Positions 29,378 to 46,108 of a DNA stretch of 64,000 nt are shown here, piece by piece (the stretch's first letter is position 1; the number at the start of each line of letters is the position of its first letter). The notes under the pieces were generated by a model that did no database searches, was not told the DNA's origin, and worked only from the letters and a program-made list of their open reading frames with translations. The stretch covers positions 1 to 64,000 of IMG/VR virus record IMGVR_UViG_3300025087_000048, one strand, 5' to 3'. This DNA is from a virus. Made by a program: the position numbers and the translations under genes.

Positions 29378-29716
29378 TCAATTCAAAAAAGCTTGGACGA
29401 AGACTCCATCGTCACTTCCAGTAGCCCCTTCAGCCGCAGTCGTCGCAAACATCGAACACCGATTCGTAAAATACAACCCAGGCTCGTTAAAATCAATAAA
29501 TTGAAACCCAGATGTCGCAGCAACCGGAATAACAAACATTGGACGTGTCGTCCCAATTGTCACAGAAGCGATCGGAGCATCAAACACTTGGATAAATGCT
29601 GCCGCACCAGTCGTATTCACAACAAGAATTTTAGCAATATGGCAAACCCCATTCGATACATTTGCCCCGTTATCGTCTAAGTTCCGCACATGAACTGACG
29701 TAATTCCCTGTGACAT
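29378..29716 (-). CDS. Small structural protein, paralog 2
   Basis: 112 aa; highly similar to 29725-30063. Confidence 0.75.
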   Translation of the reverse strand: MSQGITSVHVRNLDDNGANVSNGVCHIAKILVVNTTGAAAFIQVFDAPIASVTIGTTRPMFVIPVAATSGFQFIDFNEPGLYFTNRCSMFATTAAEGATGSDDGVFVQAFLN

Positions 29717-29724
29717 AGCACCCT

Positions 29725-30063
29725 CTAATTCAAAAATGCTTGGAGAAAAACTCCAGCACCACTCCCCGTATTCCCCTCAGCGGTTGTTGTAGAGAACGCA
29801 GAAAAACGAGACGTAAAATACAAACCAGGTTCGTTAAAATCAATGAATTGGAAACCCGTCGTCGCTGCCAAGGCAATCACAAACAATGGGCGAGTTGTTC
29901 CGAGGGTGACACTCGTGGCAGGCGAATCAAACACCTGAATAAATGCAGCAGCAGCTGACGTGTTCAACGCCAGAATCTTCGCAATGTGGCAGATACCGTT
30001 TGAGATATTCTGCCCCGTATCATTCAAATTCCGAGCATGCGTACTAGAAATAGCTTGGGACAT
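29725..30063 (-). CDS. Small structural protein, paralog 1
   Basis: 112 aa; shares AAFIQVFD...GFQFIDFNEPGLYFT...QAFLN. Confidence 0.75.
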   Translation of the reverse strand: MSQAISSTHARNLNDTGQNISNGICHIAKILALNTSAAAAFIQVFDSPATSVTLGTTRPLFVIALAATTGFQFIDFNEPGLYFTSRFSAFSTTTAEGNTGSGAGVFLQAFLN

Positions 30064-30085: not shown

Positions 30086-31075
30086 CTACTGAGATTTGCC
30101 CGCAGAGTCAATAGATCCACCCCCAACTTGTTGCTCAATCCACTGATATGTTGGCACAAGTCCATCATACAACTTCGTACTCGGTTCCCAACCAAGAAGT
30201 TTCTGAATTAACGTATTATCACTATTCCGCCCACGCACACCCTGCGGGCGAGCAAGATCATACTGCTTATATATCCGCTTGCCAGCAATTTTACATATCA
30301 TATCAATTAACTTATTCACCGAAACTACCTCAGTAGACCCAAGATTTAATGGTTGGTGTATATCAGACTGCATAATGCGATAAATCCCCTCTACACAGTC
30401 ATCAACATAACAATACGATCGCGCCTGTGCGCCATCTCCCCACACCTCAATGGTCCCCCCATCGGGGGCCATAGCGATCTTGCGGCACAGAGCCGCTGGG
30501 GCCTTCTCACGGCCTCCCTGGTAGGTTCCGAGCGTGCCATAAATGTTGTGAAAACGAGCAATACGAGTTGACAGCTTCTTATCTTCCCAATAATACTTAC
30601 ACAGTTCCTCTGCAAACAATTTCTCCCACCCATATGCTGGCTCAGGATTCGCCGGATATGCTTCCCATTCAGCCAACGGTTTTGCTCCAACCCACCCCTG
30701 CCGTTCAACTGGGTACACGCATGCGCTAGACGAATAAAAGAACCGTCGTACCCCGACATCAGCCGATGCCTCTAGCATATTCGAATCAATCAACACGTTA
30801 TTGCGAGCAACATCCGCATGCACTGACGTAATATACCCGATCCCGCCCATGTCAGCTGCAAGATGGTACACTTCGTCAATATCTCGTACAGCCTCATCGC
30901 AAGCCGACACCTGACGCAAATCCAATGTCAAGAACTCATGAGCAGCTGATAGCTCATACTCAGGCAACTTCACATCAACACCACGCACATGATATCCACC
31001 ACGAACAAGATATTTCACAAGGTGATGCCCTAGGAATCCGCCCGCACCTGTCACTAACGCATTTATTTTGCTCAT
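30086..31075 (-). CDS. GDP-mannose 3,5-epimerase-like extended SDR
   Basis: VTGAGGFLG, HLAADMGGIGYI, YSSSACVYP, YGWEK, RFHNIYG, GGREKAPAALCRK, GVRGRNSDN. Confidence 0.88.
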   Translation of the reverse strand: MSKINALVTGAGGFLGHHLVKYLVRGGYHVRGVDVKLPEYELSAAHEFLTLDLRQVSACDEAVRDIDEVYHLAADMGGIGYITSVHADVARNNVLIDSNMLEASADVGVRRFFYSSSACVYPVERQGWVGAKPLAEWEAYPANPEPAYGWEKLFAEELCKYYWEDKKLSTRIARFHNIYGTLGTYQGGREKAPAALCRKIAMAPDGGTIEVWGDGAQARSYCYVDDCVEGIYRIMQSDIHQPLNLGSTEVVSVNKLIDMICKIAGKRIYKQYDLARPQGVRGRNSDNTLIQKLLGWEPSTKLYDGLVPTYQWIEQQVGGGSIDSAGKSQ

Positions 31076-32322
31076 CGCACAACCCCCCCAAGACGAAGCA
31101 CAGGCGCTGTTACTTCAAGCTTCGCCTCACCGTACATCAGATTGTCAAACTCCGGCCACGCCGTCGCAATAATAAACACGTCTGCCTTATCTAATACGTC
31201 AGAGAGCCCCAGCGGAGTCTCGCACGACACCCCTGACACAATGGAACCGCCCATCGGATCATACCCAAGCACGGGCCATCCGCGACCAATACATGCATCG
31301 ACGATTGCCATGCCCTGAGACAGTGTCGTGTCGGCAGCCCCTGGGTTATACACAAGACCAAGAACTCCAATTACAGGCTTTTTCCGCGCACTACTGAGTT
31401 TTATATGCGTCTCAATCCAACCCAGCGTCGAAGTAATCACTCGCTGTCTAGACAGTCCATGCCCCAGCTTTGCACTCACAGCCATCGGCGATGACCCCAG
31501 CGAGCACCACACATCAAGGTCACGAGGCAAGCAAGGTCCCGCTGGACTCCAACCAGGTTTCAAATATGCAGACCCAATACGCGCATCCCCACCTACAGCT
31601 TCAAGAACCTTCTCAGACGACGCTCCAACGGCACGACACATCTCAGCAATCTCGTTTGCCCAAGCAATACGTGATGACAACGACACATTGATTGCCAATT
31701 TTGCCACCGCAATACTCAGAGGATCACCCACAACTTCACGAACATTCACCTGATGAACACCCGACCAACCCCACAACTCTCTCAGAACCTCCAACCCCGC
31801 TGACGTATTCATCCCAAAAAGACCCACCGTCGGATACGCCAAATCCTCAATCACATGCCCAAGCCGAATTAACGGCGGGTTATACAGCACTTCAGGCCCA
31901 GTACACACTTTCGTCACCGTACGAGGATCGAGCGTAGACCCAACAATGACCCACCCGGACCACCCAGATATGTTGATCTGATCCAGAACCGATTTGACAT
32001 ACTCCGCTGAAAGCCCAGAACCACGTTTTGGAGTTGGAACAATGACGTATGCGTACGCTCGATCAGAAACAAGTCCTTTTGATATCCCTGGATGATACAA
32101 CGCCTCATCAAGCGTTCTTACGTATTTGATTGACCCGAGCCATTCAGCAACACCAGGTTCCCAAGGAAGCGGATTTTCCCCTTGAGATAGCCGTGACAAC
32201 AACTCTGAATCCACATCATACCCGATCACTTGATGCCCAAGACGAGCAAAATAGCAGGCAGTAGGAAGTCCGACACGCCCTAATCCGATCACAGCAACAT
32301 TCACGGTTCGCTGTCCGGCCAT
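31072..32322 (-). CDS. UDP-glucose/GDP-mannose dehydrogenase family protein
   Basis: IGLGRVGLP, VPTP, ST, AKLA.N...I..ANE, DARIG, GPCLPRD, YDP, ATAWPEF. Confidence 0.88.
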   Translation of the reverse strand: MAGQRTVNVAVIGLGRVGLPTACYFARLGHQVIGYDVDSELLSRLSQGENPLPWEPGVAEWLGSIKYVRTLDEALYHPGISKGLVSDRAYAYVIVPTPKRGSGLSAEYVKSVLDQINISGWSGWVIVGSTLDPRTVTKVCTGPEVLYNPPLIRLGHVIEDLAYPTVGLFGMNTSAGLEVLRELWGWSGVHQVNVREVVGDPLSIAVAKLAINVSLSSRIAWANEIAEMCRAVGASSEKVLEAVGGDARIGSAYLKPGWSPAGPCLPRDLDVWCSLGSSPMAVSAKLGHGLSRQRVITSTLGWIETHIKLSSARKKPVIGVLGLVYNPGAADTTLSQGMAIVDACIGRGWPVLGYDPMGGSIVSGVSCETPLGLSDVLDKADVFIIATAWPEFDNLMYGEAKLEVTAPVLRLGGVVR

Positions 32323-33371
32323 ATTTCTCTCCCATTCCAATATGTAAAATTGTCAACATCGTTAATTGGAACTGACGCCGTCGTTCTCCATCCGGTCAAC
32401 AACTCTGATAACTCATCCATTGACCACGGATTCAATGCTCGAGGGGACCCACCCGCTTGCATCTCTGCCTTCCGACGTTCCACGTACGCCAATCCATCGG
32501 GCCAACTCCAACGTCCCTCCAACCGAATTGGCTTTGACGATCCAAAAGGCAGCGCAGGATCAATCATATGCGGATCGAGATAGCACACCGATACCTCAGG
32601 AGCCCACCATAATTCAACATGTGCCGCTAACAAACGATATTGTAAGTCAATATCCAGCGGACCCCGCCCCCGTTCCAACCGTTCATCTAACCCGTTGAGC
32701 TCCCACATCACATCACGACACACCGAATCATTCTTAATATGGAGCCACCCATCTCCAAGACCAGACCCACCCGTTCGCCTCAACTCTGTCATGCGAAGAT
32801 CCTGATGGCGTACTGGCAATCCCATCAAATGCGGCAGCCACGCAGATTGAAATCTCCCAGCCTTCATTGGGTACATCTCATCCAAAATCTCCCCGCGTGC
32901 CACCGGGCTCTCTTCCGTACATTCGAATCCTGCTTCCCACTTTCGCACCACCGCCTCAAAATCATACGGCTGCTTGAGAACAAGTTCAGGAATCGGGACA
33001 AACCGGTAGCTCCCCGCCACGTACCGCCGCTGCCCGTCCAACGCCTTCAGGTGCCCCTCAATCCATCCTGGCGGGGTATACATCCAATCAGCCAAGAAGA
33101 TCACCACACGCCCTCGAGCCAACGCAATTGCAGTATTCCAAGCTGACGCGAAAGACACCCATTTCCCATTCCGCCGATGTTCAGGAACATGAAGCAACGG
33201 CACATCATAACCCCACGCCATCTCCTGTACTTCTTTATGTCTCTTCTCGTACCGACGGTCAACCAAAATAACTTCAAAATCTTTGAACGTCTGATCTCTC
33301 ATCCCAGCCAAAAGAACATCAATTCCGCCCGGCCTGAACACAGTAGACAATACGGACACTTCAGGCGTCAT
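32301..33371 (-). CDS. Glycosyltransferase family 2-like
   Basis: QTFKDFEVILVD, AWNTAIALARG, NGLDE...DIDLQYRL. Confidence 0.8.
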   Translation of the reverse strand: MTPEVSVLSTVFRPGGIDVLLAGMRDQTFKDFEVILVDRRYEKRHKEVQEMAWGYDVPLLHVPEHRRNGKWVSFASAWNTAIALARGRVVIFLADWMYTPPGWIEGHLKALDGQRRYVAGSYRFVPIPELVLKQPYDFEAVVRKWEAGFECTEESPVARGEILDEMYPMKAGRFQSAWLPHLMGLPVRHQDLRMTELRRTGGSGLGDGWLHIKNDSVCRDVMWELNGLDERLERGRGPLDIDLQYRLLAAHVELWWAPEVSVCYLDPHMIDPALPFGSSKPIRLEGRWSWPDGLAYVERRKAEMQAGGSPRALNPWSMDELSELLTGWRTTASVPINDVDNFTYWNGREIWPDSEP

Positions 33372-33877
33372 ACAGACACCAAATACGACCAAGATCGTCC
33401 CCTACGAACGTCACGAATAGCAGAATCAGACACTCCAAAACGACGACCTAACACTGGTGCAGACTCATTACTCATTCTTATTTCCAAAACACGCGCTTCT
33501 GTCAATTTAGTCCAACCCAACCGCTCACCTCTTCGCCACGAATGGTCAATTAACCCCAAAGCATTTGCATGTTTCATATTTTCGGAGCGAGTAACATACT
33601 CCAAGTTAGAAACAAAATTGTTAGTTTTAACCCCATCTAAATGGTTAACCTCATACCCATCCGGCCTTGGTCCAATAAACGCTTCTGCAACAACTCGATG
33701 AACAAGCATCAAATTTGTCACTCCTGGACGTCTAAGGCGAATACATAAGTACCCACCTGGGTGTTTCCACACTCTCATCATATGTACACGCCCTTTAATT
33801 CTGAACACATCCCCCAAATTAGATACCAAATATTGCTGCTCGTAACCAACAACAGGACGCCAATCAAGTTCAAGCAT
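33368..33877 (-). CDS. NUMOD4-HNH homing endonuclease
   Basis: WRPVVGYE..YLVSNLGDV; VHRVVAEAF; VNHLDGVKTNN.VSNLEYVT.SEN. Confidence 0.93.
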   Translation of the reverse strand: MLELDWRPVVGYEQQYLVSNLGDVFRIKGRVHMMRVWKHPGGYLCIRLRRPGVTNLMLVHRVVAEAFIGPRPDGYEVNHLDGVKTNNFVSNLEYVTRSENMKHANALGLIDHSWRRGERLGWTKLTEARVLEIRMSNESAPVLGRRFGVSDSAIRDVRRGRSWSYLVSV

Positions 33878-34433
33878 GCCTAACCCCGGTCACATGCATT
33901 TCCCATTTATTATACCAACCGCCATGCACAATATTAGAAAAACCAGCAAATTCTAACTCAGTTTTAAACGAATCAAAATTATACAACCATTTATGATATC
34001 CAAATCCATTTTCATTATTAGGCCCATGAAACAAACATGAAAGCCACCCTTCAAACAATCCATCCTCTCGTAACCGTTCAAGAATAAAATCACCATCCCC
34101 TATCATCACAATAATTTGCCCACCAGTATCAAGAATACGATAACATTCACGAAGAATTTTTCGAGCTGCATCCCGTGATAAATGCTGTAAAGAATGAATT
34201 GCCTTTACACACTGTGCATGCCCATCATGAAACGGAAGATCTTCCTGTTCCAAATCGCACACAATATCCACATTTGGCCCAGCAGATATATCAACATTCG
34301 GATGATAGACATCCTCTGCCGGACCCCCACCAATCTCCACCCACCGAGAGATCCCACACTGCTCGCACAGAGGTCCATACCCCCCTGATGGCGGAGGAGG
34401 CCCATGGGACTGCCACCGCGTAATATCCACCAT
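33870..34433 (-). CDS. Class I SAM-dependent methyltransferase
   Basis: VEIGGG, NVDI, DLPF, HSLQHL, L.ECYRIL..GG. Confidence 0.8.
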   Translation of the reverse strand: MVDITRWQSHGPPPPSGGYGPLCEQCGISRWVEIGGGPAEDVYHPNVDISAGPNVDIVCDLEQEDLPFHDGHAQCVKAIHSLQHLSRDAARKILRECYRILDTGGQIIVMIGDGDFILERLREDGLFEGWLSCLFHGPNNENGFGYHKWLYNFDSFKTELEFAGFSNIVHGGWYNKWEMHVTGVRHA

Positions 34434-37264
34434 CAGACCACCTCGACAGGTTTCTGAAGCAACCGCTTCCTGGCGTACCACACGGCCTGCTTTGCAAACT
34501 CCTCCAGATTTCCGCCAAACTCATCAGCCGTTCTCACTAACACACGATCCCAAGCAAGCCGTAACAACACATCCACCAAATCCGGCCATTGAAGCCGAAG
34601 TAATAAATTCATCTCTTCGTAAAATCTGGAACTCTTCTGTGAAGCAATATTCAAATATGTAAATTCCTCAGTTGGCCAGATAATATTCCCATACCGAAGA
34701 TCAACCTCACCCCACTGGCCTCCGTCCAACCCGCGTTTCACAATCGCGATCGTTCGCCTATATTCCTCAGCCAATAATGTCGCGGGTCGTCGAGATGCCA
34801 CCTGCAAAAGCCACTCATAAAACTCCCGGTATGACACACCTTGAACATCATGCAAATACATCGCAACTTCCCGGAGTAACCCAAACCCATGAAATGTCTG
34901 AACTGCCCACGAGAACATATACGCCTGCACCCAATCCGCTTCCGGCATCGTTGCGGTCTCAATACATAGGAGACAGGTTTCTTGAATTCCATCCTGATTC
35001 GGAGTCGAGTGCTGTTGCAACAGCGGAGACTGAATCACACGCATTCCATGCTTCTTCTGATACTCGAGATCGCCCATCTCTGCATTCGGAAGAACTGCCA
35101 ACAAATAAATATTCAGTCCCTCATGTTGCCCAGCCTTTAATAGCTGCTCAATCCCCCTGGTAAACGAGTCGTATGTCTCCCCTGGCAAACCAAGAATTAA
35201 CTCCGTGTATGTAGGAATTCCCTCCTGACGATATGTCCCCAACAATGATTTGAAGTTCTCGATCTTAATATTACTCCGCTTGATCTCCTGTAACGTATGT
35301 GCGTCAAGGCTCTGAAAACTCAATGTGGTCCCCTTACTCATTCCTGCCTGGTGGACCACACTAGAGATATCAAGAACTTTCTGATTACTGTTCTTTGCGT
35401 ATGCCGCCCGAAATTGCCGTGGATAGCCATATTTTTCTTTCGCAGCAACCATTTCCTTTGTCAATTCAAGATCACGTGGAAGCAATCCAAAATTCGCATC
35501 ACAATTATAAAGTAGTTCAATTTCGTGCTGACCCATCCACTCAAATTCACGAACAAGACGTTCATCATCAAACGCTCGTATCTTCGTAAGGACCGCAGAA
35601 CCCCAATCACAATTGTGGCTTTCCAACCCGAAAACACTATAAATTGGAGTATCTTCTACTTCTAAATTAAAAACATACCCAGAAAAATCGGCATCACTTA
35701 CGGACGTCACATACGCCCACAAGTTTATTGGTAACTTTTCCGGAAACCGCCCAGCAAATTCTATCCGATAGGATTCATGCACATTAACATCTCGCCCGCA
35801 AATTCTAGGAACAAGCAATTTACGTTTAGAAACACCAGCACAAATACCAAGCAGACTCAGCAAAACCTGAAGTTGAGTAGCAAGAGTCAACGACACAGTC
35901 GAAGCAATACAGCGACCTTGAGAATTCTTCTTATCAATACTGAAACACCCATCTCCATCGAAATAGCCGCGAATAAACGCATGTATCAATTCCGACGAAA
36001 CACTAAACCACGCGTACGGAATCTTTTTCCTTAACGATCCAGAACCGAACAACTTAGAAAACAAACGAGCATACACCGAACTACAAACATAAATTTGCAT
36101 GCCTGTATCAGTTTCAGATACGATCGGTTCGACACCTAAGCACAACCTAACCAGTTGGCATGTTTCAGTAATTAAATCAGTCTCGTGTTTCCCAAACGTC
36201 CATCCTACAACACCAGAATTTGGCCGAGTTTTTGAAAAAGAAACATGTCCTTCCGCAACATACAACCCGCACAAACGCATAAACAAGTTATTCATAATTA
36301 CATAACGTGGCACTTTCACTTTGCCACGCTTGAATTTAACAAACATACCATCTACACACAACGCATCTAAATAGTTACATAGATCTAAAATCTCCACGCC
36401 CGCTCTCTGTGTATCCGGCACAGATACACGAATACGATCTCCTACAGTAATTTCACCAGCAGAAATCCATCCGCGCTGCGTCAACCATTCATGATTAGGC
36501 GTACACTGTATCAAAGGACGCCCTACAACTTTCACTCGTTTAATCACCCCGGAGTACCGCCGCTCATACCTATGCAGAATCTGCTTCAATCCAGTATGCG
36601 TCCAAACTTGTTCGCCTACTTTATCCAAAACAACTTCAGAAATAGGCACAGACCCAGCGTCTGTCATAATAACTGCATCACCTGTCAAACAAAAACTGCA
36701 AGAATAGACACATCCCCTATGCGTCTCTTGACTAGCATTATGATTATAGTCCGCTTCAAGCATCATGTCGAACACACCGGTCACATACGGAGATGGCAAA
36801 ATAGAAAGATCAGCAATTCGTGAACCAGATCGGTGAACCAAGGTTTCTGCCTTCAACCCACTACAACGAACCAGTAAAATCTCAGAAAACGCGATTTCTC
36901 CCTCATGATGAACAACAACGTCCACATAATCCGGGATATCACGACGTAATGCCACTGACTTTGGAACATGCGGACCACCAAACACGATCAAACAGTCCGG
37001 ATACGATTCACGAACTTTCTGTGCAAGAACCTTGTTAAACTCCCAGTTCCAAATATAACATGAAAACCCGACAACATCCGGATTTTCCATTCGTTCCACA
37101 ATCGCATCAGAACGCTCTCGAAGATAAATCAACTCTTTGAAACAGTATTCTTTGTTTACCCAATCAAGTGACTGACAGTATGCTTGAATCAATCCGACGG
37201 AATACGGAAGAAACACGTTATCCCCGAACCGATTATTCACTTGAACCAAATACACGTTACGCAT
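34433..37264 (-). CDS. Cobalamin-binding radical SAM protein with a LAGLIDADG intein
   Basis: LPYSVG, GFSCYIWN, VFGGPHV, ETHRGCVYSCSF[intein]CDWG, CDANFG, ELILGLPGET. Confidence 0.9.
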   Translation of the reverse strand: MRNVYLVQVNNRFGDNVFLPYSVGLIQAYCQSLDWVNKEYCFKELIYLRERSDAIVERMENPDVVGFSCYIWNWEFNKVLAQKVRESYPDCLIVFGGPHVPKSVALRRDIPDYVDVVVHHEGEIAFSEILLVRCSGLKAETLVHRSGSRIADLSILPSPYVTGVFDMMLEADYNHNASQETHRGCVYSCSFCLTGDAVIMTDAGSVPISEVVLDKVGEQVWTHTGLKQILHRYERRYSGVIKRVKVVGRPLIQCTPNHEWLTQRGWISAGEITVGDRIRVSVPDTQRAGVEILDLCNYLDALCVDGMFVKFKRGKVKVPRYVIMNNLFMRLCGLYVAEGHVSFSKTRPNSGVVGWTFGKHETDLITETCQLVRLCLGVEPIVSETDTGMQIYVCSSVYARLFSKLFGSGSLRKKIPYAWFSVSSELIHAFIRGYFDGDGCFSIDKKNSQGRCIASTVSLTLATQLQVLLSLLGICAGVSKRKLLVPRICGRDVNVHESYRIEFAGRFPEKLPINLWAYVTSVSDADFSGYVFNLEVEDTPIYSVFGLESHNCDWGSAVLTKIRAFDDERLVREFEWMGQHEIELLYNCDANFGLLPRDLELTKEMVAAKEKYGYPRQFRAAYAKNSNQKVLDISSVVHQAGMSKGTTLSFQSLDAHTLQEIKRSNIKIENFKSLLGTYRQEGIPTYTELILGLPGETYDSFTRGIEQLLKAGQHEGLNIYLLAVLPNAEMGDLEYQKKHGMRVIQSPLLQQHSTPNQDGIQETCLLCIETATMPEADWVQAYMFSWAVQTFHGFGLLREVAMYLHDVQGVSYREFYEWLLQVASRRPATLLAEEYRRTIAIVKRGLDGGQWGEVDLRYGNIIWPTEEFTYLNIASQKSSRFYEEMNLLLRLQWPDLVDVLLRLAWDRVLVRTADEFGGNLEEFAKQAVWYARKRLLQKPVEVV
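35612..36691 (-). mobile_element. Intein with homing endonuclease (360 aa) in the radical SAM
   Basis: CLTGD...CTPNHEW...GLYVAEG...FIRGYFDGDG...VFNLEV...SHN|C. Confidence 0.93.
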
Positions 37265-38273
37265 ACCACGCCCACTCTGGTTTTTGCCCCACAAGATGCC
37301 CTGCATTGCCGCTCACAATCCTGGACGCATCATGCTCACACGCCAAAAACCTCGGGAGCGACGCTTCAGGTGTACTTCTCCACACTGAATGCGGGAAGTA
37401 ATGCCGAGGATTCACAATCTCAACAGTTGCCACCGGATCAAGAAGCATCCATGCAGCTCCAGAACGACTCAGACGAAGACCCATATCCGAATCATCATAA
37501 CAATGACCGATCCACGACTCGTCAAACCCGTTCACTTCACGTCCCCGCTCAGCCCCCATCCCTTCATTTTTCGCATGAAACGCAGTCGGAGGAACATCTC
37601 CACTCACAAGTCCATTCAATTTTGGATCAGCACGGAAAAAATACGGATCTTCATCCAAAGTCAGAACTTGCTCAGGATACTTAATCGGCGGATCAAAGAT
37701 CGTGTACATCCATTTATCGTAAACCCCGTCCTGTATCGCGTCAGCAAACTCTTGTCCAGCCTGTGCTGAATATTGGTAGGTTGCTCCCTGCACTGGTTTC
37801 ACCACACAGTCCACTGTGGCTGCTCCGTATACCCAATGTGCCCGAATTGGTGCATACGCTGGAAGATCATATGCCAGAGTCGGAGGATACCGGTATCGGT
37901 GCGCTCCCATCCCGGCCTTCTTCTTCTCGGTGTACTCCCAGACCCCCCAGTGTTCCCGTAAGCATGCTTCTGGGAAAAACGAGTAATCCACCCCCCACAC
38001 AATCAGTTCCCCGGATGCCTTCGCAATCGCCGTATTCCTAGCGGCCGGAACTGAATCCAATGGGAATATCCGATCCTTCGGGGGTGTATGAACCACCCGA
38101 ATACTCGCATCAAAAAAGGCATCCGCCACTTGTTCGGCCCGGCGATGGTACAATGCATCAACGAGTACCACCTCGAAATCATCAAAGATCTGACGAGTCA
38201 ACCCAGCTAAAAGAACATCAAGACCGCCTGGCCGCACAGTCACAATACACAAACTTAACCTGGGTGCCCCCAT
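37257..38273 (-). CDS. Glycosyltransferase family 2-like (paralog of 32301-33371)
   Basis: RPGGLDVLLAG..Q.F.DFEVVLVD, ARNTAIAKASG, VNGFDE..G..YDDSD...RL. Confidence 0.82.
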   Translation of the reverse strand: MGAPRLSLCIVTVRPGGLDVLLAGLTRQIFDDFEVVLVDALYHRRAEQVADAFFDASIRVVHTPPKDRIFPLDSVPAARNTAIAKASGELIVWGVDYSFFPEACLREHWGVWEYTEKKKAGMGAHRYRYPPTLAYDLPAYAPIRAHWVYGAATVDCVVKPVQGATYQYSAQAGQEFADAIQDGVYDKWMYTIFDPPIKYPEQVLTLDEDPYFFRADPKLNGLVSGDVPPTAFHAKNEGMGAERGREVNGFDESWIGHCYDDSDMGLRLSRSGAAWMLLDPVATVEIVNPRHYFPHSVWRSTPEASLPRFLACEHDASRIVSGNAGHLVGQKPEWAWYA

Positions 38274-38488
38274 TACCGAACATCTGCCAATTGCATATGA
38301 ACCAAACGAGATGTTAACACCAGCTCTGGTTCCTCATGAACCCCCTCAACAACACATGCACACACGTCTGAAAATACCTGCCGCACTGTCCCTGTCCATG
38401 ACGACACACCCCTCGGACCCCAGCCTGACTTCACAAACACAACATCTCCAACATTAATCACTCGGAGATCCTGACTTGCATGTGGCAT
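38273..38488 (-). CDS. Small SH3/KOW-like hypothetical protein
   Basis: VGDVVFV...WTGTV; coupled. Confidence 0.5.
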   Translation of the reverse strand: MPHASQDLRVINVGDVVFVKSGWGPRGVSSWTGTVRQVFSDVCACVVEGVHEEPELVLTSRLVHMQLADVR

Positions 38489-38500
38489 ACGTCACCCCTT

Positions 38501-39553
38501 TCAGTTTTTACCAGTGTACAACTCACGAAGCACCGCCTCCTCGGACTTTACCCACGTGCACATGTCCTTCACTCCAGCCTGGATCGTCACCGTTGGATGC
38601 CACTGCATCCCCACCATTCGCTCAATATTCGATACATACACTTTATTGTCCTGTGGCCTCCAATCTCCGTACACGATCACTGGTTTCATTCTCAACTCAT
38701 CGGCAATCAACGCAAGTGCTTCGACCAATGACGTAGCGTTCCGCACTCCACCACCGAGATTGAATAATTCGCCCTTGTACACATCAGCCACCTCGAACAA
38801 CCGATCAAACGCAGTACACACATCCAGCACATGCAACATATCTCGCACCTGGAACCCGTCGCCCTTGATCTCAATAGGCAACCCCAGGAGCGTTGCAATA
38901 CAGAACCACCCGAGCCATCCCTGTGCGGATCGTCCAAATTGCCGTGGACCATACATCCCGGATGGCACGACAATCACAATTGGCATGTCATACATCGCCG
39001 CATAACAACGGCTGTAATATAATCCAGCTATCTTCGACGCCCCGTACGGCTCCTTCGCATCCGTATAAAATGGAAACTGCTCCGATGGACCGTGCCGATT
39101 CCCGACCCACCGATATCGAGATCCATTCAACTCGACAGGCCACCCGGTCACGTCGTATACCTTGTTCGATGCTAAATACAACACCTTTGCCTTCGGAGCA
39201 GCGTGTCGAAGTTCGTCCAGAAGCGTAAATGTACCAATAACATTCGATGAAAAATCAACTTCAGGAGCTTCCATTGATACATTGACACTTGACTGTGCTG
39301 CGGCATGTACAACACGATCAATCCCATCAAATTGCTTCAATGCACTTTGCACCACTTCTGGTAACGCAACATTTCCGTGAACAATTCGCAAAAACGGAGA
39401 CGTCGCATATTTCCTAAGCCACTCTTCGTTATACTTACACGATCTCCCACGAGTATACCCATCAAGCACAACAACCTGATATCCATGTTCCAGGCAATGT
39501 TTTGCATAGTTACTCCCGACCAACCCTAGACCGCCCGTAATTAACACTCGCAT
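38501..39553 (-). CDS. NAD-dependent epimerase/dehydratase (CDP-paratose 2-epimerase RfbE-like)
   Basis: LITGGLGLVGSN, HAAAQ, ASNKVY, PYGASK, MYGPRQFG...QGW.GWF, GDG.QVRD.L, DWRP.D.KVY.S. Confidence 0.85.
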   Translation of the reverse strand: MRVLITGGLGLVGSNYAKHCLEHGYQVVVLDGYTRGRSCKYNEEWLRKYATSPFLRIVHGNVALPEVVQSALKQFDGIDRVVHAAAQSSVNVSMEAPEVDFSSNVIGTFTLLDELRHAAPKAKVLYLASNKVYDVTGWPVELNGSRYRWVGNRHGPSEQFPFYTDAKEPYGASKIAGLYYSRCYAAMYDMPIVIVVPSGMYGPRQFGRSAQGWLGWFCIATLLGLPIEIKGDGFQVRDMLHVLDVCTAFDRLFEVADVYKGELFNLGGGVRNATSLVEALALIADELRMKPVIVYGDWRPQDNKVYVSNIERMVGMQWHPTVTIQAGVKDMCTWVKSEEAVLRELYTGKN

Positions 39554-39567
39554 GGATAATCTCCTGT

Positions 39568-39744
39568 TTAATTCAAACACGTACGCTGTGAATCCAGATC
39601 TCCCATCTGAAGTAACGCTCCCTGTAGCAAATACATTTCCCCGTCCGGCACGAACGGACAACACACCACCTCCACGTTCCCCATCTTTCCGACACTCTTA
39701 TGGTCAAGCTGACAAATCGGACACCAGACACAAACCTTATTCAT
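39568..39744 (-). CDS. Small Cys-rich hypothetical protein
   Basis: CVWCPIC...CCP; ATGA overlap. Confidence 0.4.
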   Translation of the reverse strand: MNKVCVWCPICQLDHKSVGKMGNVEVVCCPFVPDGEMYLLQGALLQMGDLDSQRTCLN

Positions 39745-40847
39745 GTTGGAAGCCTGCGCTGAATCATCTCCTCCCACTGACGAGCCACCACATCCCACTG
39801 ATACTGCTGGGCAAACGCACGAACCTGTTCACGAGCATTATCAATCGACTCCGGATGCTGAAACGCCTGAAGAACAGTCTCAATATAACTATCCGTCCAT
39901 TTACGTGTTTCTCCGCGAGGAACAACCAAAGCCCCACTCTCTCCATAAATCTCTCCGAGCGCATCCGCATCAGTAATCACTGGAACCACACCAGCGGCAC
40001 ACGCTTCCAATACAGCAACTCCAAACCCCTCAGTAAAACGAACTGGATCACATGGATACAGCATCACATCAGCCTGCAACAACTCCTCTGCCAGTACGTG
40101 AGGAGCAACTGCCCCGTGAACAAACACACCATGTCCCTTCAACTCGTTCAATCGTCGTACAATAAACTTAGCCCGTTGCCCGATCTCGGAATTCAACAAG
40201 ATCGCACTATCGAGCCATTTTTGAATTTCATAAAATATATGAAGTTCCGCGTCCGGATACGCCAAATGGATCTCGGCCCACATTGCTAACACCCAGTGCA
40301 ATCCTCGATCCGGAGATGACAAATAAACACATCGTCTCTTCTTACGAGGTCTCACCGCTAAAAACCGATCCACATCAACTCCATTCGGGAGAATCTCCAC
40401 TCGCTCCATACTTGTCGGATGCCCATCTTCTTTCCACAAGTGATCCCGATGGGCCTGTGAAACTGAAACATAGACATCGACAAAGTTCTCAAACCCGTGC
40501 GTTGACAACATCCAATCATTAATCTGAATACTCAACACCCGCAACGTCTTCGACCCAAGATCTCGAAGAAAATCTGCGGTCAACCACGAAATCACGACAT
40601 CAGCCCCATCAGTTCTTCGCAATCGAGGCCACGCTCTCCGCACATCCAACACTTCCACCCCGTCAAAGAATCCTGGTTGATCTGTCGGCATATAGCACAC
40701 CACACGGTAACCACTCTTGGCCTGAGCCTTAGCCAGATACAACATGGTCTGTTCCGACCCGGTCACCCCTCGACCACCAGATACAAGATCTGAGTAGCTC
40801 AATGGGCCGTGGGCCGTTTCGAGCAAACAATGCACCAATGTTTTCAT
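39741..40847 (-). CDS. Glycosyltransferase family 4 (GT-B)
   Basis: GSEQ, VS..H, PNGVD, YLSSPDRGL, EGFGVAVLEA (EX7E). Confidence 0.88.
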   Translation of the reverse strand: MKTLVHCLLETAHGPLSYSDLVSGGRGVTGSEQTMLYLAKAQAKSGYRVVCYMPTDQPGFFDGVEVLDVRRAWPRLRRTDGADVVISWLTADFLRDLGSKTLRVLSIQINDWMLSTHGFENFVDVYVSVSQAHRDHLWKEDGHPTSMERVEILPNGVDVDRFLAVRPRKKRRCVYLSSPDRGLHWVLAMWAEIHLAYPDAELHIFYEIQKWLDSAILLNSEIGQRAKFIVRRLNELKGHGVFVHGAVAPHVLAEELLQADVMLYPCDPVRFTEGFGVAVLEACAAGVVPVITDADALGEIYGESGALVVPRGETRKWTDSYIETVLQAFQHPESIDNAREQVRAFAQQYQWDVVARQWEEMIQRRLPT

Positions 40848-43717
40848 GCTAATCTCCCAATAAATAGCCGTTCCCAGTACGCAGCACAATCATCCCAGGA
40901 TGTATTCCGACGCGTCCACTCCATCATGGTCTGACGCCCAGCCTGCGTCTGAGCCGCTTCACACACCGCTTCAACAAAATGTGCATCATCCACCTTCCAC
41001 CCGAACACTACGGATTGACCAAGAGCCCCCATCGGGAACACCACAGGCCATGCCCCGCACGCTTGCGCCAGATAACTCGAGATACAATTTTCTTCTTTCC
41101 ACGTACTCGGGTAACACCAAACCCCTGATTTCAAAAGTTCCTTATACAGTTCTGGCTGCCCAATCCGCCCACGCCACGTCACTCCTGGCAACGTCTGGAC
41201 CAACGACATCACGCGCTCCTTGAATGCCGCCCCTTCTGGTGTCGCGGTCACCCCCATTTTATCCGCTGAATCCCACCCGTAATAACAGTGGAGCTCCGCC
41301 TGAGGAAGTTGCTTCACAATCGTCGGCCAATACCGCTCGAGCAATACATTCAATCCACGAAACGGTGTACTCACATACACCATGCGCATAGGATTTCTCT
41401 GTTTCTCAACCTCATCCTCATCTTCACACGGATTAATATCATGCGGATCAATCCCATTTCGCCCTGAATATATTTTAGAAATCCCAGAATATAAACTAGC
41501 GTGATAATCTGAAATACACCAAATCGCATCGACCCACTGGGATGCCATCTCCACCCGTTGACGATCAATCGAATCATGCAACCACAGCCCCCGCCACCCA
41601 GCTTCCAATGGGCGAACCTGATTCACAAAGATCTCTGGATGCCTCCAGCCGAGGAGAATCTCAGTCGGGACATACTCAGATACGGGTTTGTAGGAGATCT
41701 CGCCGTACAAGTCAACGTCGGCCCCCACAAAGCCACTCCCATACACCGTCACCGCATGCCCCCGGCGGGCAAACGCCCGACTCAACCGGATCACCGCCTC
41801 TTCGCTCCCCCCAATCCCTTTCCCAAGGGATTCAGGACCCCACACTTCTGGTGACAGAGGGCACACAATGGCAATTGTTCGACTTCGCACCGAACTCATG
41901 GGAAGTGGAACCATCAAGGCAAGGTCACCAGCATCAGCCGGAGCTCCGCCCAACACAGCTGGCATTCGCACCGTTCCCATGACTTGACGGAACGTGTCAA
42001 CTGAATACGCACGTAACCGTGCCGTCTCGAACCTTGGAGGAGCCAAACCCTTGGACGACGGCCCATTTGGCACCAACGCAAAAACATATCCACCCGGATT
42101 CACCACTTGATATGCCCGTTTTACAACTTCGTCCGGGTACTTCACCCGTTCCAAACAACTCCACAGCACCACCGCGTCATAGTGACCGACAATCTGATCA
42201 ACTCGTTCAATCCGCACCGCCTTCAACCCGTATTCTTTGTAAAGAACACTTGTTTCAAGAGGCCCTCCAATCTGAAGCAGCGACTGAATCTCAGGAGCTT
42301 GCGATATATGATCAAAGATATACTTCACCGATGGATCATCCCACGTGTCTTCAAATTGACGAAGCTGCGCCTTAGGGATCTCCCCACGAGACGCAGCACC
42401 ACACACGGCTCCAGCAATACGTATCCATTTTTTGATTTCCGCACAATCACGAAGAACTGGACTGGATCGAGCAATAATTAATCCTGCCGTTTCCGCATCA
42501 TCATGCCGAAGGAAAAACTCCGCAGCATCTGAAATGGCCTGCTGCCCGCGACGAAGATTCAATGCAACGGACAACGTATCCACATTATGCCGATGCGCCG
42601 TATCTTCAGGAACACGGCACAACGCCGTCTCTGACTCGTCCAATGCCTCCTGGAGCTGCCCAACTTCCATCAATGCCCGAACATAGTCCCCCACCCAGCC
42701 CACGGACTCATGGAGCGGGTTAATCGCAAACGGCGTCTCTGGAATCTCAGCCCGTTTGGCCATGGCTCCGTAATAGATACATGAATTCCAATCAGACTTC
42801 TTCGCATGCGTTTCAAGCAATCCTGCATACGCATCCCGCCATGTCGGACGAAGCGCCACAGCCTGTAAATCGTATCCAACAGATCGATCCAAATCCCCCT
42901 TGAACCGATACAGATCCCCCAAAAAATGTAACGCAAGATATTTTTCATCTGACACTGTAGCTTTTGGCAGGTACTTCTCAAACGCAGACACCGCCGCATC
43001 AAACTCCTGATGATGCGCATGCTCTAATCCAAGATAAAATAAGATCCTCTCATCATATTTTTCATACGGAACCTTCAACAAAATATCCAAATTTCGACGA
43101 CTTGGCACCGCTCGCTTTCGCACATGACGACGATGCACCACTTTCATATGCGTATATTTTCCCAGCCGATGGCCTGCCGATGGAATTGCTTCATGCACGG
43201 GATACATCCACCGCCAATTCGGATCATTACGAACCAACCGCTCACGATGTTGCGTCGTAACACACCGAAGCCCCAACTGCTGAATCAACTCCTGCGGGAT
43301 CAATTGCCCTGCACGAATTAACGGATCAATCTGCTCAGTCAACAGCTTCTCGCCAACCCCATCAAACGCATACAAATATTCCAGCACCGCGCCATCTAAA
43401 TTCTGTTCAATACACTTCTGCAACATATCCTCAAGATATTCACGACCGACCAGCACGTCATCGTCGTCGAGCCAAAAACAATATTCAGTTGTCAATTTAG
43501 AAAATGATTCATTTCGGGCTGCTGAGAAATCATCAATCCACGGGAAGGAAGACACTTCAGCACCAAACGCTTTTGCCACTTCAATCGTATTATCAGTTGA
43601 ACCAGTATCTACCACCACAACCTGATCAAATAATCTATGCACTGAACGAAGACACTGCTCCAACGTCTCAGCACAATTTTTCACAATCATAGCAAGACCT
43701 ACAGAGCCTTTTCGCAT
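40844..43717 (-). CDS. Multidomain GT2-TPR-methyltransferase-like-GT4 fusion
   Basis: MIVKN..VVVDTGSTDNT..WIDDFSAARN..WLDDDD..VHE; TPR-like helices; YDAVV..CLE.V..P..NPGG; GGSEEA..NGID..YVSTPFRGL..YPS. Confidence 0.88.
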   Translation of the reverse strand: MRKGSVGLAMIVKNCAETLEQCLRSVHRLFDQVVVVDTGSTDNTIEVAKAFGAEVSSFPWIDDFSAARNESFSKLTTEYCFWLDDDDVLVGREYLEDMLQKCIEQNLDGAVLEYLYAFDGVGEKLLTEQIDPLIRAGQLIPQELIQQLGLRCVTTQHRERLVRNDPNWRWMYPVHEAIPSAGHRLGKYTHMKVVHRRHVRKRAVPSRRNLDILLKVPYEKYDERILFYLGLEHAHHQEFDAAVSAFEKYLPKATVSDEKYLALHFLGDLYRFKGDLDRSVGYDLQAVALRPTWRDAYAGLLETHAKKSDWNSCIYYGAMAKRAEIPETPFAINPLHESVGWVGDYVRALMEVGQLQEALDESETALCRVPEDTAHRHNVDTLSVALNLRRGQQAISDAAEFFLRHDDAETAGLIIARSSPVLRDCAEIKKWIRIAGAVCGAASRGEIPKAQLRQFEDTWDDPSVKYIFDHISQAPEIQSLLQIGGPLETSVLYKEYGLKAVRIERVDQIVGHYDAVVLWSCLERVKYPDEVVKRAYQVVNPGGYVFALVPNGPSSKGLAPPRFETARLRAYSVDTFRQVMGTVRMPAVLGGAPADAGDLALMVPLPMSSVRSRTIAIVCPLSPEVWGPESLGKGIGGSEEAVIRLSRAFARRGHAVTVYGSGFVGADVDLYGEISYKPVSEYVPTEILLGWRHPEIFVNQVRPLEAGWRGLWLHDSIDRQRVEMASQWVDAIWCISDYHASLYSGISKIYSGRNGIDPHDINPCEDEDEVEKQRNPMRMVYVSTPFRGLNVLLERYWPTIVKQLPQAELHCYYGWDSADKMGVTATPEGAAFKERVMSLVQTLPGVTWRGRIGQPELYKELLKSGVWCYPSTWKEENCISSYLAQACGAWPVVFPMGALGQSVVFGWKVDDAHFVEAVCEAAQTQAGRQTMMEWTRRNTSWDDCAAYWERLFIGRLA

Positions 43718-43733
43718 ATTGACTCTACCCCCG

Positions 43734-44027
43734 CTATGCCGTTGTACGCTCCCACCGCACTGCAACTTCCTGAAGAACAGTTTGTTTGACAAGGCAATGT
43801 CCAAGCAGATCCAACCAGAGACACTCAGAATCCCATAAACGGCGAGTCAGAAAATCATAGGCATCATCTCGAATCAGTTGCAGTTCTTGTTGCGTTTGTA
43901 TGTCCGTAACCTCGTGAACCTCTAAGTCACTCAACGCCTGCCGAACCACACGAACAGCAATCAATACGGGAAAATCAAATCCTTGAAGATCATCTCCACC
44001 CCAGACCGCTCTCATCGAAGTGCTCAT
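43734..44027 (-). CDS. Hypothetical protein, first gene after the internal promoter
   Basis: VVRQALSDL...DDAYDFL motif. Confidence 0.55.
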   Translation of the reverse strand: MSTSMRAVWGGDDLQGFDFPVLIAVRVVRQALSDLEVHEVTDIQTQQELQLIRDDAYDFLTRRLWDSECLWLDLLGHCLVKQTVLQEVAVRWERTTA

Positions 44028-44033
44028 GAACCC

Positions 44034-44062
44034 ACGATAACCCAACCGGTTGGACTATGCAA
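44034..44062 (-). promoter_or_regulatory. Sigma70-like promoter with a palindromic spacer
   Basis: TTGCAT-N17-TATCGT with an A-tract upstream; perfect palindrome CCAACCGGTTGG at 44042-44053. Confidence 0.6.
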
Positions 44063-44096: not shown

Positions 44097-44909
44097 TTAT
44101 AAGATAAGTCCCTTATTAGAACCACCACCACCAAAGAAATAATACGGATTATTATACAATTTCAAAGCAAGAGTATTCCCCGACGGAATGAACTCATTAA
44201 ACTGGTACCAGTATTCAAAATCAGCAGTCGGAGCATCAATAGTAACACCCAAGGTAATCGGCAAAGCACCGGGACTCGAACTATTAATCTCCGTAGCTTT
44301 ACTTGACACCAGTACGCCATTATCCCAAATTGCCATTCCAGTTGCCGAATCAGCACCAGTCCCGTCGCTCCATGACACCATGATCGCATGCCACTCATTA
44401 ATTAACGTTGACCCAGCAGTCCCATCGAGGAAATCAGCACCCGGAGATGCTTCCGTGGCGGATATCCGTTGACCCAGATTCAGCGAGATGACATCATTAC
44501 TAGGAAAAGCTACCTCTGGAGCCTGAATCGAAAACATTGATAGGGGGTTACCAGCAGACTCATTATTCGTCATAATCAATGTGGGGGTTTGCACCAACAC
44601 CCGTTGCGCCCACGCGATTGTACGTCGGTGCCGATCCATCGCGAGAAACGACGTTTCGGACACCTGGACAGACCTCGCCCCTGTCGTCCCTCCCCCGTTC
44701 ATGTTCACTCCGTACGATTGCCATGTTGTCTGCCCAGTTGCACCAGCGTTGAAAGTCGTTGCGTCCCCTGGAAGTCGCGTCACATATTCTAAAGTCGTCG
44801 TAGGATCTTCACCTTGAATTAACGGGCAACATCCAACTAACGACGCTGGTGCTACACGCCAATTAATAAGCGCCTGCGGATTTGGTTTTGGAGATAGCGT
44901 ATATGCCAT
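44097..44909 (-). CDS. LamG/concanavalin-A-like surface protein
   Basis: NEWHAIMVSW.DG....IWDNGVLV; LYNNPY C-terminus. Confidence 0.6.
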   Translation of the reverse strand: MAYTLSPKPNPQALINWRVAPASLVGCCPLIQGEDPTTTLEYVTRLPGDATTFNAGATGQTTWQSYGVNMNGGGTTGARSVQVSETSFLAMDRHRRTIAWAQRVLVQTPTLIMTNNESAGNPLSMFSIQAPEVAFPSNDVISLNLGQRISATEASPGADFLDGTAGSTLINEWHAIMVSWSDGTGADSATGMAIWDNGVLVSSKATEINSSSPGALPITLGVTIDAPTADFEYWYQFNEFIPSGNTLALKLYNNPYYFFGGGGSNKGLIL

Positions 44910-44987: not shown

Positions 44988-45260
44988 TCAATACCCGTAC
45001 GCGATTGCCTTCCCCTCCAACGCGGCACCCTCCAGAACAAAGGTCACCACCCCTCGACGACTCACTGGAGATGAAATCGTCACCCCCCACTGAGTCCCAC
45101 CAGCCGCCGTACTCGGCGTAAACATAAAATGTTCGATGATCGCAAGCCCTGGAGTCCAAGTCTCGCCATCGCCAACTGATGTCAGATCTGCCTTCACACC
45201 ACGCATGTTTCCCTCGATAAAATCCAATCGAGTTCCAGCTGTCTCAGCAACTTCTGCCAT
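44988..45260 (-). CDS. Small capsid-associated protein, paralog 2
   Basis: 90 aa; AETAGTR.DF..GN.R.VKADLTSV...TWTPGL. Confidence 0.75.
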   Translation of the reverse strand: MAEVAETAGTRLDFIEGNMRGVKADLTSVGDGETWTPGLAIIEHFMFTPSTAAGGTQWGVTISSPVSRRGVVTFVLEGAALEGKAIAYGY

Positions 45261-45273: not shown

Positions 45274-45546
45274 TTAATACCCGTACGCCATGGCAATTCC
45301 CGCCAACGTCCCAGACTCAATGGCAAACGTGACGACAGCTTGCCTCGTTGCCGGAGCTGACACTGTCGCACCCCACTGTGTCGTTGCCCCAGCCGTCGTT
45401 GGAGTAAACACAAAACTCTCGATAATAGACAACCCAGGCGTCCACGTATCCGCATCATCAACGGACGTCAGATCCGCCTTCACGGCCCGCAGATTTCCCA
45501 CAACAAAGTCACGCCGAGTCCCCGCTGTTTCTGCCGCTGCCGCCAT
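45274..45546 (-). CDS. Small capsid-associated protein, paralog 1
   Basis: 90-aa tandem duplicate; both copies end in AYGY. Confidence 0.75.
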   Translation of the reverse strand: MAAAAETAGTRRDFVVGNLRAVKADLTSVDDADTWTPGLSIIESFVFTPTTAGATTQWGATVSAPATRQAVVTFAIESGTLAGIAMAYGY

Positions 45547-45646: not shown

Positions 45647-46108
45647 CTACAATTGACTGATGAAAACAGCCGACCCAGCAGACAGCCCGGTCTGAATCGC
45701 AATCGCAGCCGCATTGAAGTGCGACGTATTGCGAATACTCAGAACACCCGTGTTTGCACTCGGGCCAAGACCCGCGCCAGCCGCATCCGCCGTCACCACC
45801 CGACCCGTTGCCGGACCGTAGATGGTCACCCAGCCGAAGTTCAACGCGGCCAGAGTCGTCTCAGCGATGCCGAAGAACATATCCGTCGCGCCGCTGGACG
45901 CCTGTACCTGCATCCCCATCAATGCCGCCGTCGTCACGGACGAATCCATCTTCAGAGCTTCACCAGCCGGAATCAAGGCACTCGCCTTCACATACCGCAA
46001 CACCTTGCCCGCTTCAAACCGCCACACACCAAGCTCTTCCTGTTGCGTGGTATCATTGGCAGTGATTTTTGTTTTGAACGGCCCAGTATTCAAATACGGC
46101 CCACTCAC
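45647..46108 (-). CDS. Capsid decoration/cement protein
   Basis: GKVLRYVKA, GIA......FGWV..YG; follows the major capsid gene. Confidence 0.7.
   Translation of the reverse strand: MSGPYLNTGPFKTKITANDTTQQEELGVWRFEAGKVLRYVKASALIPAGEALKMDSSVTTAALMGMQVQASSGATDMFFGIAETTLAALNFGWVTIYGPATGRVVTADAAGAGLGPSANTGVLSIRNTSHFNAAAIAIQTGLSAGSAVFISQL

Follow-up and report, generated by a model that had tools for sequence, protein, structure and literature searches.

A sugar-gene island behind the capsid gene of an uncultivated groundwater phage: a candidate system for glycosylation of the virion

The first 64 kb of the linear IMG/VR virus record IMGVR_UViG_3300025087_000048 (94,223 bp; guanine-cytosine (GC) content 51%), which stems from a groundwater phage, were analysed, and this whole stretch is referred to as the window. 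On its minus strand, an island of sugar-related genes (30086-44045) is situated between the gene of the major capsid protein and the adaptor and tail genes. Judged from gene families and gene order, the island rather probably encodes a cytoplasmic system, expressed late, by which proteins of the phage's own particle are glycosylated; the most likely acceptors are the major capsid protein and/or the small head proteins whose genes immediately precede the island. The virion as target gains strength from the synteny of a large four-module glycosyltransferase with the capsid gene, from the near absence of this enzyme in cellular genomes, and from its likeness to glycosyltransferases acting on proteins or peptides. 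At the DNA level, no close relative of the phage was found among 50,697 deposited phage genomes.

The four-module glycosyltransferase and its linkage to the capsid gene

The two genes of this linkage, the enzyme being composed of modules of glycosyltransferase families 2 (GT2) and 4 (GT4) and of tetratricopeptide repeats (TPR), are the following (lengths in amino acids, aa):

46782-47753, minus strand: major capsid protein (phrog_9953 major head protein, 2e-51), the upstream anchor
40844-43717, minus strand: four-module enzyme, 957 aa, with the order GT2, TPR, methyltransferase-like, GT4 (Pfam GT2 match of 69 bits)

The AlphaFold2 (AF2) model of the four-module enzyme has a mean predicted local distance difference test value (pLDDT) of 90; residues ~208-443 are all-helical, and the TPR matches follow the GT-A domain. 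When the family profile was compared with the PDB, the nearest solved relatives of the GT2 module were GmaR (8e-25), then SunS (1e-14) and ThuS, a match that spans only ~100-400 residues, and the TPR segment matched OGT. The NCBIfam model of SunS matches the GT2 module at 7e-12, below its cut-off. In Foldseek, the whole model retrieves SPINDLY (SPY), SunS/ThuS and OGT on top, followed by PimA, MshA and BshA for the C-terminal GT4 module, with target-normalised TM-scores of up to 0.68 for SunS/ThuS and of 0.6-0.7 for PimA, MshA and BshA. The DxD motif of the GT2 module (D84/D86/D87) and the residues GGSEE, H714-D715 and E875-E876 of the GT4 module are invariant in 21 aligned sequences, and an unusual GGGP motif I is common to the methyltransferase-like module and the stand-alone methyltransferase encoded at 33870-34481. 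By these resemblances, the enzyme is proposed to act as the initiating and first elongating protein glycosyltransferase.

There are 24 close relatives of the enzyme (49-99% identity), several of them with inteins; orthologues interrupted in this way include P0002, P0003, P0014 and L090:2518-6303. The wider family comprises 309 IMG/VR stretches and 113 metagenome stretches of ~27-36% identity, mostly near full length. The full-length enzyme was found in no cultured phage, and the representative genomes of 185,579 prokaryote species yielded only 7 matches: in two of these, where the neighbours could be read (loci L243 and L246), a capsid or portal gene is located just upstream, and on a 2.2-Mb Dehalococcoidia contig (L245) no capsid gene was recognised nearby. 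Literature searches returned no account of a capsid-adjacent enzyme with this order of modules.

A search for such synteny in viral metagenomes, recommended in a preliminary description of this DNA, was carried out. As iteration of a hidden Markov model (HMM) from the window capsid missed the capsids of the wider family, the open reading frames (ORFs) of 161 loci with the four-module enzyme were clustered, by which a capsid family (phrog_1328) was found 2-4 genes before the enzyme, and still farther upstream the portal and terminase. Among the 98 loci with at least 3.5 kb of DNA upstream of the enzyme, a capsid gene on the same strand ends less than 3.5 kb upstream in 86 (median gap 507 bp), and two or more capsid families, phrog_1328 and phrog_9953, accompany the enzyme. 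In the reverse direction, a search starting from the capsid protein found the enzyme with 24 of the 25 capsid relatives that share at least 50% identity, against 1 of the 24 that share 28-43%; this capsid-first scan was based on a 6-sequence capsid alignment, an alignment of 24 sequences being too diverse. The one annotated record that carries the enzyme, the complete 42.6-kb podovirus MW202524 from Manatee Spring, shows the order capsid, small gene, big enzyme, two transferases, methyltransferases, another GT2, tail genes.

Enzyme distances and capsid-protein distances are correlated (Spearman 0.59; 0 of 500 permutations as high), with the enzyme diverging faster; such a correlation is expected of linked genes and hence indicates stable linkage, nothing more. 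The five genes downstream of the enzyme turn over fast (Jaccard index 0.35 at 10-25% capsid divergence). A sample of 149 ORFs downstream of the enzyme, from 57 loci, contained, by Pfam, GT2 (22), methyltransferases (at least 10), sugar short-chain dehydrogenases/reductases (SDRs; 8), the SU10 adaptor (6), radical S-adenosylmethionine (SAM) proteins (4), GT4 (4), sugar C-methyltransferases (3) and nucleotidyltransferases (3), and no DNA-modifying family is represented within the 25 commonest families of this sample. The SU10 adaptor marks the start of the tail genes.

Gene content of the island and its neighbourhood

The island is co-oriented with the head and tail genes and begins after a terminator-like hairpin behind the small head genes; no convincing terminator was seen inside it. 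Its 12 ORFs overlap or lie less than 80 nt apart, such that the co-oriented, tightly coupled block of ~14 kb seen in the preliminary description is confirmed. Apart from the four-module enzyme, it contains in order of transcription (NDP, nucleoside diphosphate):

43734-44045, minus strand: protein Y, ~100 aa, helical, with an invariant Cys in RxDAYDFLTxRLWDxxCLW
39741-40889, minus strand: GT4 for elongation (Glyco_trans_1_4 3e-12, Glycos_transf_1 2e-10); start codon uncertain
38501-39553, minus strand: SDR resembling NDP-hexose 4,6-dehydratases (Epimerase 1e-41; TIGR01181 dTDP-glucose 4,6-dehydratase 6e-43, below cut-off)
38273-38488, minus strand: ORF of 71 aa with no family match; its stop overlaps the next start
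37257-38273, minus strand: divergent GT2-like protein (Glycos_transf_2 1e-3, 19.5 bits, below the Pfam cut-off; EpsD-like 5e-5; orthologue in L089 53% identical)
34433-37306, minus strand: B12-binding radical SAM protein related to the KedN5 family (B12-binding 3e-10; NF033712 2e-73), with intein and LAGLIDADG domains
33870-34481, minus strand: SAM methyltransferase (Methyltransf_11 6e-7; weak MftM-like match; orthologue in L084 47% identical)
33368-33877, minus strand: HNH/NUMOD4 homing endonuclease (HNH_3 3e-16, NUMOD4 1e-7), absent from L089
32301-33392, minus strand: GT2 for elongation (Glycos_transf_2 4e-9; orthologue in L089 60% identical)
31072-32340, minus strand: NDP-sugar 6-dehydrogenase for uronic acid supply (PF03721, PF00984 and PF03720 all match)
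30086-31075, minus strand: SDR of the Fcl/GalE-like epimerase/reductase type (Epimerase 1e-46; GDP-L-fucose synthase model 1e-31, below cut-off), with a YGWEK motif

The earlier count of three GT2 and two GT4 domains, two SDRs, one dehydrogenase, one methyltransferase and one B12 radical SAM protein agrees with the Pfam, NCBIfam and fold results, whereas the 360-aa intein, the HNH endonuclease and the conserved gene Y had been overlooked. The HNH/NUMOD4 gene is a selfish insert outside the pathway, and the methyltransferase is probably a sugar O-methyltransferase. The stand-alone GT4 has an EX7E motif at residue 287 and shares 51-64% identity with its orthologues in L084-L092. Membrane-spanning segments are absent from all island proteins (the highest 19-residue hydropathy, 1.83, lies within a Rossmann fold), and no Wzx, Wzy or phosphoglycosyl transferase family is found among their Pfam matches.

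Concerning the supply of sugars, the 4,6-dehydratase-like SDR has the GxxGxxG and YGASK motifs, and the TDE motif was not found in it; its longest ORF begins at 39664, and the Rossmann motif and the length of the orthologues place the start at 39553. The dehydrogenase reaches 157.5 bits with TIGR03026 (4e-46) against a cut-off of 189.8 bits, and its catalytic Cys270, within GPCLPRD, is conserved in L089. From these family matches, a 6-deoxyhexose route through the 4,6-dehydratase-like and Fcl-like SDRs and a uronic-acid route through the dehydrogenase are reasonable inferences. The notion that the phage makes its own nucleotide sugars thus holds for these two routes, whereas a sugar-1-phosphate nucleotidyltransferase is lacking from the island, as are genes for cobalamin or reductant supply, such that the island is not fully self-contained as had been stated.

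The 360-aa LAGLIDADG intein of the radical SAM protein occupies residues 206-565 inside the CxxxCxxC motif, between GCVYSCSF and CDWG; upon its removal, CVYSCSF and the following C restore CxxxCxxC, and intein-less orthologues are 77-86% identical. With NF033712, the protein scores 247.6 bits in two stretches against a cut-off of 700 bits, a value lowered by the intein and still well short, and by sequence it is a relative of the KedN5 family and not an assigned member. Its own family was found in 102 IMG/VR stretches on viral contigs of 5 to 370 kb. Within 8 kb of these relatives (80 loci, L163-L242), a sugar SDR occurs in 20, a dehydrogenase in 15 and a second class-B radical SAM gene in 23, and because of the SDR and dehydrogenase neighbours a sugar would fit as its substrate. 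The radical tailoring of a glycan put forward earlier therefore finds support in the relationship to a C-methyltransferase family and in these neighbours, whereas the score remains below the curated cut-off.

A second cobalamin radical SAM gene is situated in the window among the tail genes, 5 kb from the island:

23544-24953, minus strand: cobalamin radical SAM protein #2 (class-B matches to BchE, ApyD, AprD4 and PhpK, 1e-28 to 1e-32)

Orthologues of 67-68% identity (L085:8679-10217 and L089:21171-22598) close the sugar block, ahead of the 112-aa genes described below, and homologues at 29-32% adjoin the big enzyme in L097, L149 and L150. Since relatives carry this gene in the sugar block or beside the big enzyme, it probably belongs to the island system, and its position in the window points to the rearrangement of a functionally linked gene.

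Two conserved pairs of tandem paralogues, of 90 and 112 aa, bracket the island, and the following features are found between them and the capsid gene or directly behind the island:

45647-46108, minus strand: protein X (153 aa, rich in beta structure), which may cement or decorate the capsid; conserved in 6 relatives, where its gene follows that of the capsid protein immediately
45274-45546 and 44988-45260, minus strand: tandem paralogous 90-aa genes, with orthologues in L083-L090
44967-44931, minus strand: strong hairpin resembling a terminator (stem of 16 bp with 8 G-C pairs, then a T-run), located behind the second 90-aa gene and ahead of the 270-aa gene
44097-44909, minus strand: 270-aa protein in a variable slot between head genes and island, with no Pfam, PHROG or PDB match
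29378-30063, minus strand: tandem paralogous 112-aa genes directly after the island (nearest atlas clusters 91-100% viral)

Protein X has a weak match to phrog_29386 'virion structural protein' (1.4e-4) and an atlas lead to Phage_cement_2; PF09956 was not detected in the genome, and the pLDDT of the X model is only 32. No matches among PDB sequences were obtained for protein X, the capsid protein or the 270-aa protein, and for the last of these no homologue was found in the close relatives. The 90-aa proteins are presumed to be abundant head proteins. The hairpin may act as an attenuator that permits high expression of the capsid and small head genes and low expression of the enzymes. Orthologues of the 112-aa genes in L001, L085 and L089 follow directly after sugar genes or after the homologue of radical SAM #2.

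Protein Y has homologues in 8 relatives (L082-L090), always directly upstream of the big enzyme and abutting or overlapping its start, and may serve the four-module enzyme as cofactor, chaperone or even substrate. In the wider family (loci L002-L161), the slot one gene upstream of the enzyme (-1) is filled by a different superfamily of small helical proteins of 105-145 aa, which end in a W-F-x-K-F-P-x-[FY]-R-like sequence (e.g., L049:6497-6934, L124:167-535, L019:9627-9998) and of which clusters 4, 9 and 16 are interrelated (hhalign probability 96-98%). That Y is homologous to these proteins was considered and rejected, as hhalign indicated no homology and no Cys motif is common to them.

The minus-strand order of the structural genes is large terminase, portal, major capsid protein, island, SU10-adaptor-like protein, virion proteins and large tail proteins; the replication genes lie past 64 kb on the opposite strand, far from the island. 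Further features of the structural region are:

52442-55327, minus strand: large terminase, 961 aa long where its relatives have 527-594 aa, with an insert of the size of an intein
50266-51975, minus strand: portal
26010-27443, minus strand: tailspike-like beta-helix protein, judged by eye from its N-terminus MAGPYYV...
22556-23455, minus strand: SU10-adaptor-like protein (weak match)
19441-21849, minus strand: virion proteins

The tailspike-like protein, 477 aa long, is rich in Ala, Thr, Ser and Gly, and its segment has a GC content of 62% compared with ~50% elsewhere, a contrast that may point to the recent acquisition of a receptor-binding gene. The structural region is densely populated by selfish elements (46127-46759, 52442-55327, 33368-33877 and 21942-22541), two HNH genes included; the LAGLIDADG endonuclease gene between the capsid gene and X (46127-46759) is also present in L085 and absent in L089.

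Close relatives of the window lineage, from Hainich groundwater and on one IMG/VR contig, have the same layout with differing content; the capsid proteins of L001, L085, L089 and L090 are 72-83% identical to that of the window. Locus L089 (capsid 79% identical) contains Y, the big enzyme, the GT4, the dehydratase-like SDR, both GT2, the dehydrogenase and the second SDR, and lacks the intein-bearing radical SAM gene, the methyltransferase and the HNH gene. The block of L084 consists of Y, the big enzyme, the GT4 and the methyltransferase, that of L085 only of Y, the big enzyme, a GT4-like stretch and one gene without assigned function. In L001 (capsid 72% identical), a GT2, a dehydrogenase, a hexapeptide acetyltransferase, a GT4-methyltransferase fusion and another GT2 are found.

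Proposed pathway and target of the glycans

We infer acceptor, sugars and order of steps in the following scheme. Host nucleotide sugars would be converted into an NDP-6-deoxyhexose by both SDRs and into an NDP-uronic acid by the dehydrogenase. The GT2 module of the big enzyme would then add the first sugar to a Ser, Thr or Cys of the acceptor, held by the TPR, and further sugars would be added by the GT4 module of the same enzyme, by the stand-alone GT4 and by both GT2. Finally, the methyltransferase would O-methylate the glycan, and the spliced radical SAM protein would C-methylate a sugar or an O-methyl group.

That the virion is the target, as had been suggested in the preliminary description, is favoured by the capsid synteny, the near absence of the enzyme from cellular genomes and its likeness to protein and peptide glycosyltransferases, whereas a feature characteristic of an acceptor was not found, and several points weigh against such a target. 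Capsid synteny indicates co-inheritance and probably co-expression, not the substrate. Small genes are indeed conserved on both flanks of the island, but that they are structural, as had been described, is only presumed. Capsid proteins adjacent to the four-module enzyme (n=93) bear no Ser/Thr-rich C-terminal tail, the last 25 residues containing 13% Ser/Thr compared with 18% in the whole protein, and the window capsid protein has no C-terminal tail. The sequon G-x-[ST]-[GA] is not enriched in capsid, small head or other virion proteins, with the exception of the product of 4515-5840 (minus strand; 441 aa, 23% Gly, 14% Pro), the only such protein of the genome, with 11 sites compared with 3.5 expected from shuffles. 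Radical SAM chemistry requires low oxygen and host cobalamin, and part of the pathway may accordingly be conditional. The phage is uncultivated, and its record is ~83% complete (CheckV), such that genes could be missing. PF12851 (Tet_JBP) had no match in the record, though the control genomes were silent as well, and clusters for DNA hypermodification are reported in the neighbourhood of structural genes as well (Pyle et al., bioRxiv 10.1101/2023.12.21.572611).

This last point leads to the reading in which the enzymes hypermodify the phage DNA with a glycan after its replication, either in the manner of the C5 methyltransferase/5mYOX/glycosyltransferase systems or of T4. Phage glycosyltransferases and epimerases are described to decorate 5-hydroxymethylcytosine (5hmC) with hexose, N-acetylhexosamine (HexNAc), heptose or hexuronic acid, from clusters near structural genes (bioRxiv 10.1101/2023.12.21.572611), and the incompleteness of the record leaves room for absent partners. 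However, neither PF00303 (thymidylate-synthase-type hydroxymethylase) nor PF00145 (C5 DNA methylase, for which the control matched 9 of 14 genomes) has a match in the 94-kb record; DNA methylase and dioxygenase families are not among the common neighbours of the big enzyme; a TPR module is part of the enzyme, whose nearest relatives have proteins or peptides as acceptors; and the island belongs to a late structural operon far from the replication genes (>64 kb, opposite strand). DNA as the target is thus considered very improbable. Somewhat less improbable, although still unlikely, is a remodelling of the host surface glycan (lipopolysaccharide (LPS), capsule, S-layer or flagellin) late in infection, by which superinfection might be prevented or progeny kept from binding to debris again. 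Clusters for O-antigen and exopolysaccharide (EPS) typically contain GT2, GT4, SDR and dehydrogenase genes, and weak NCBIfam matches to EpsD, EpsE, TuaC and TuaD were obtained; enzymes of the GmaR type act on flagellin, a host surface protein, and cellular GT2-TPR proteins are labelled 'cell wall biosynthesis' in the sources. A membrane segment, a flippase, a polymerase and a priming phosphoglycosyl transferase are all absent, however, the full-length enzyme is nearly absent from cellular genomes, and across phages it is fixed behind the capsid gene in the structural operon and not located by lysogeny or early genes.

A similarly low probability, if anything slightly lower, is given to an acceptor that is a small phage protein such as Y, comparable to a glycocin, or a cytoplasmic host protein modified during takeover. 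SunS and ThuS, which the GT2 module resembles, S-glycosylate a Cys of a small helical peptide encoded nearby, and Y itself is a small helical protein with an invariant Cys, its gene touching or overlapping the start of the enzyme gene in 8 of 8 close relatives; a small gene occupies the -1 position in the wider family too. Yet neither homology nor a common Cys motif links Y to the -1 proteins of the wider family, genes for export and a leader peptidase are absent, and five transferase domains together with an own sugar supply appear large for a regulatory mark, whereas the capsid gene is the conserved partner across all lineages.

A farther-reaching form of the proposed virion glycosylation, which we regard as possible but doubtful, is that an undescribed large group of environmental tailed phages (more than 300 IMG/VR contigs, at least 2 capsid families) builds a lineage-variable 'glycocalyx' on the capsid, in the present phage with C-methylated sugars or even capsid residues. 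Its conserved part would be the capsid-linked four-module glycosyltransferase, with tailoring genes that turn over fast, among them the two cobalamin radical SAM genes found here. If decoration of the particle applies, sugar-coated capsids would be common in uncultured freshwater, soil and groundwater phages, and the coat would be built by a dedicated enzyme inherited with the capsid gene, far more elaborately than in known cases. This would bear on adsorption, particle stability, aquifer transport, recognition by host defences and antibodies, and phage engineering, and the cobalamin radical SAM proteins would tie virion maturation to the B12 and redox state of the host. The four-module enzyme offers a concrete, clonable handle for experiments.

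Comparison with known glycosylation systems

To our knowledge, glycosylation of the particle by phage enzymes has been demonstrated only in a few actinobacteriophages, virus-encoded capsid glycosylation being otherwise a matter of giant algal and amoebal viruses, and we know of no report of C-methylated sugars or capsid residues for any virus particle. Mycobacteriophages (Che8; cluster O, e.g., Corndog) resemble the present phage in having phage-encoded glycosyltransferases expressed with the structural genes (PMC11600133, PMC12619734), and those of cluster O modify capsid and tail tube by an O-methyltransferase and three glycosyltransferases (PMC11600133, citing Freeman 2023). The situation of glycosyltransferases beside structural genes is found here as well, the island being preceded by the capsid gene and followed by the adaptor and tail genes. 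In contrast to the island, the mycobacteriophage systems comprise 2-4 single-domain transferases, sugar-nucleotide synthesis and radical SAM proteins not being part of them, and their glycans are described on C-terminal regions of the subunits, whereas the window capsid has no such tail. This likeness is one of description.

The chlorovirus PBCV-1 possesses in A064R two rhamnosyltransferases joined to a 2-O-methyltransferase, acting on capsid glycans (PMC7826918), and A064R, A111/114R and the machinery of giant viruses share with the island that they are virus-encoded, cytoplasmic and multi-domain, and that nucleotide sugars including 6-deoxyhexoses are produced by the virus (PMC7826918, PMC9614988). 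These systems belong to giant viruses of eukaryotic hosts and differ in their N-linked glycans, in domain order and in lacking TPR and cobalamin radical SAM proteins. The comparison is proposed as an analogy only.

Concerning the big enzyme itself, the Listeria flagellin O-linked N-acetylglucosamine transferase GmaR (PDB 22ao) and SunS/ThuS (PDB 7msn, 7msk) likewise have a GT-A domain followed by a helical or TPR acceptor-binding domain; they are single-function and cellular or prophage-encoded, whereas the phage enzyme adds methyltransferase-like and GT4 modules. With OGT and SPINDLY it shares a TPR array before a GT-B catalytic domain, but these belong to GT41, not to GT4, and at a root-mean-square deviation (rmsd) of ~30 Å it is the domain order only, and no rigid architecture, that is shared. 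DNA-hypermodification clusters have in common with the island phage glycosyltransferases and sugar epimerases, sometimes near structural genes (bioRxiv 10.1101/2023.12.21.572611); what defines them, however, is that genes of a C5 cytosine methyltransferase and of a 5mYOX/TET dioxygenase adjoin, and neither was found in the record, the Tet_JBP control having been silent. The methylcobalamin-dependent C-methyltransferases of the KedN5 family resemble the island radical SAM protein in their B12-binding domain and CxxxCxxC motif. KedN5 itself presumably methylates a small-molecule carbon.

The earlier view that the system is more elaborate than cases with glycosyltransferases only can be maintained, whereas it is not unique, since relatives of the enzyme often travel with SDRs, C-methyltransferases, radical SAM proteins and nucleotidyltransferases. 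Compared with the proven systems, the island differs in the four-module architecture with TPR, in the sugar-nucleotide tailoring, in the cobalamin radical SAM proteins, and in its wide spread among uncultured tailed phages.

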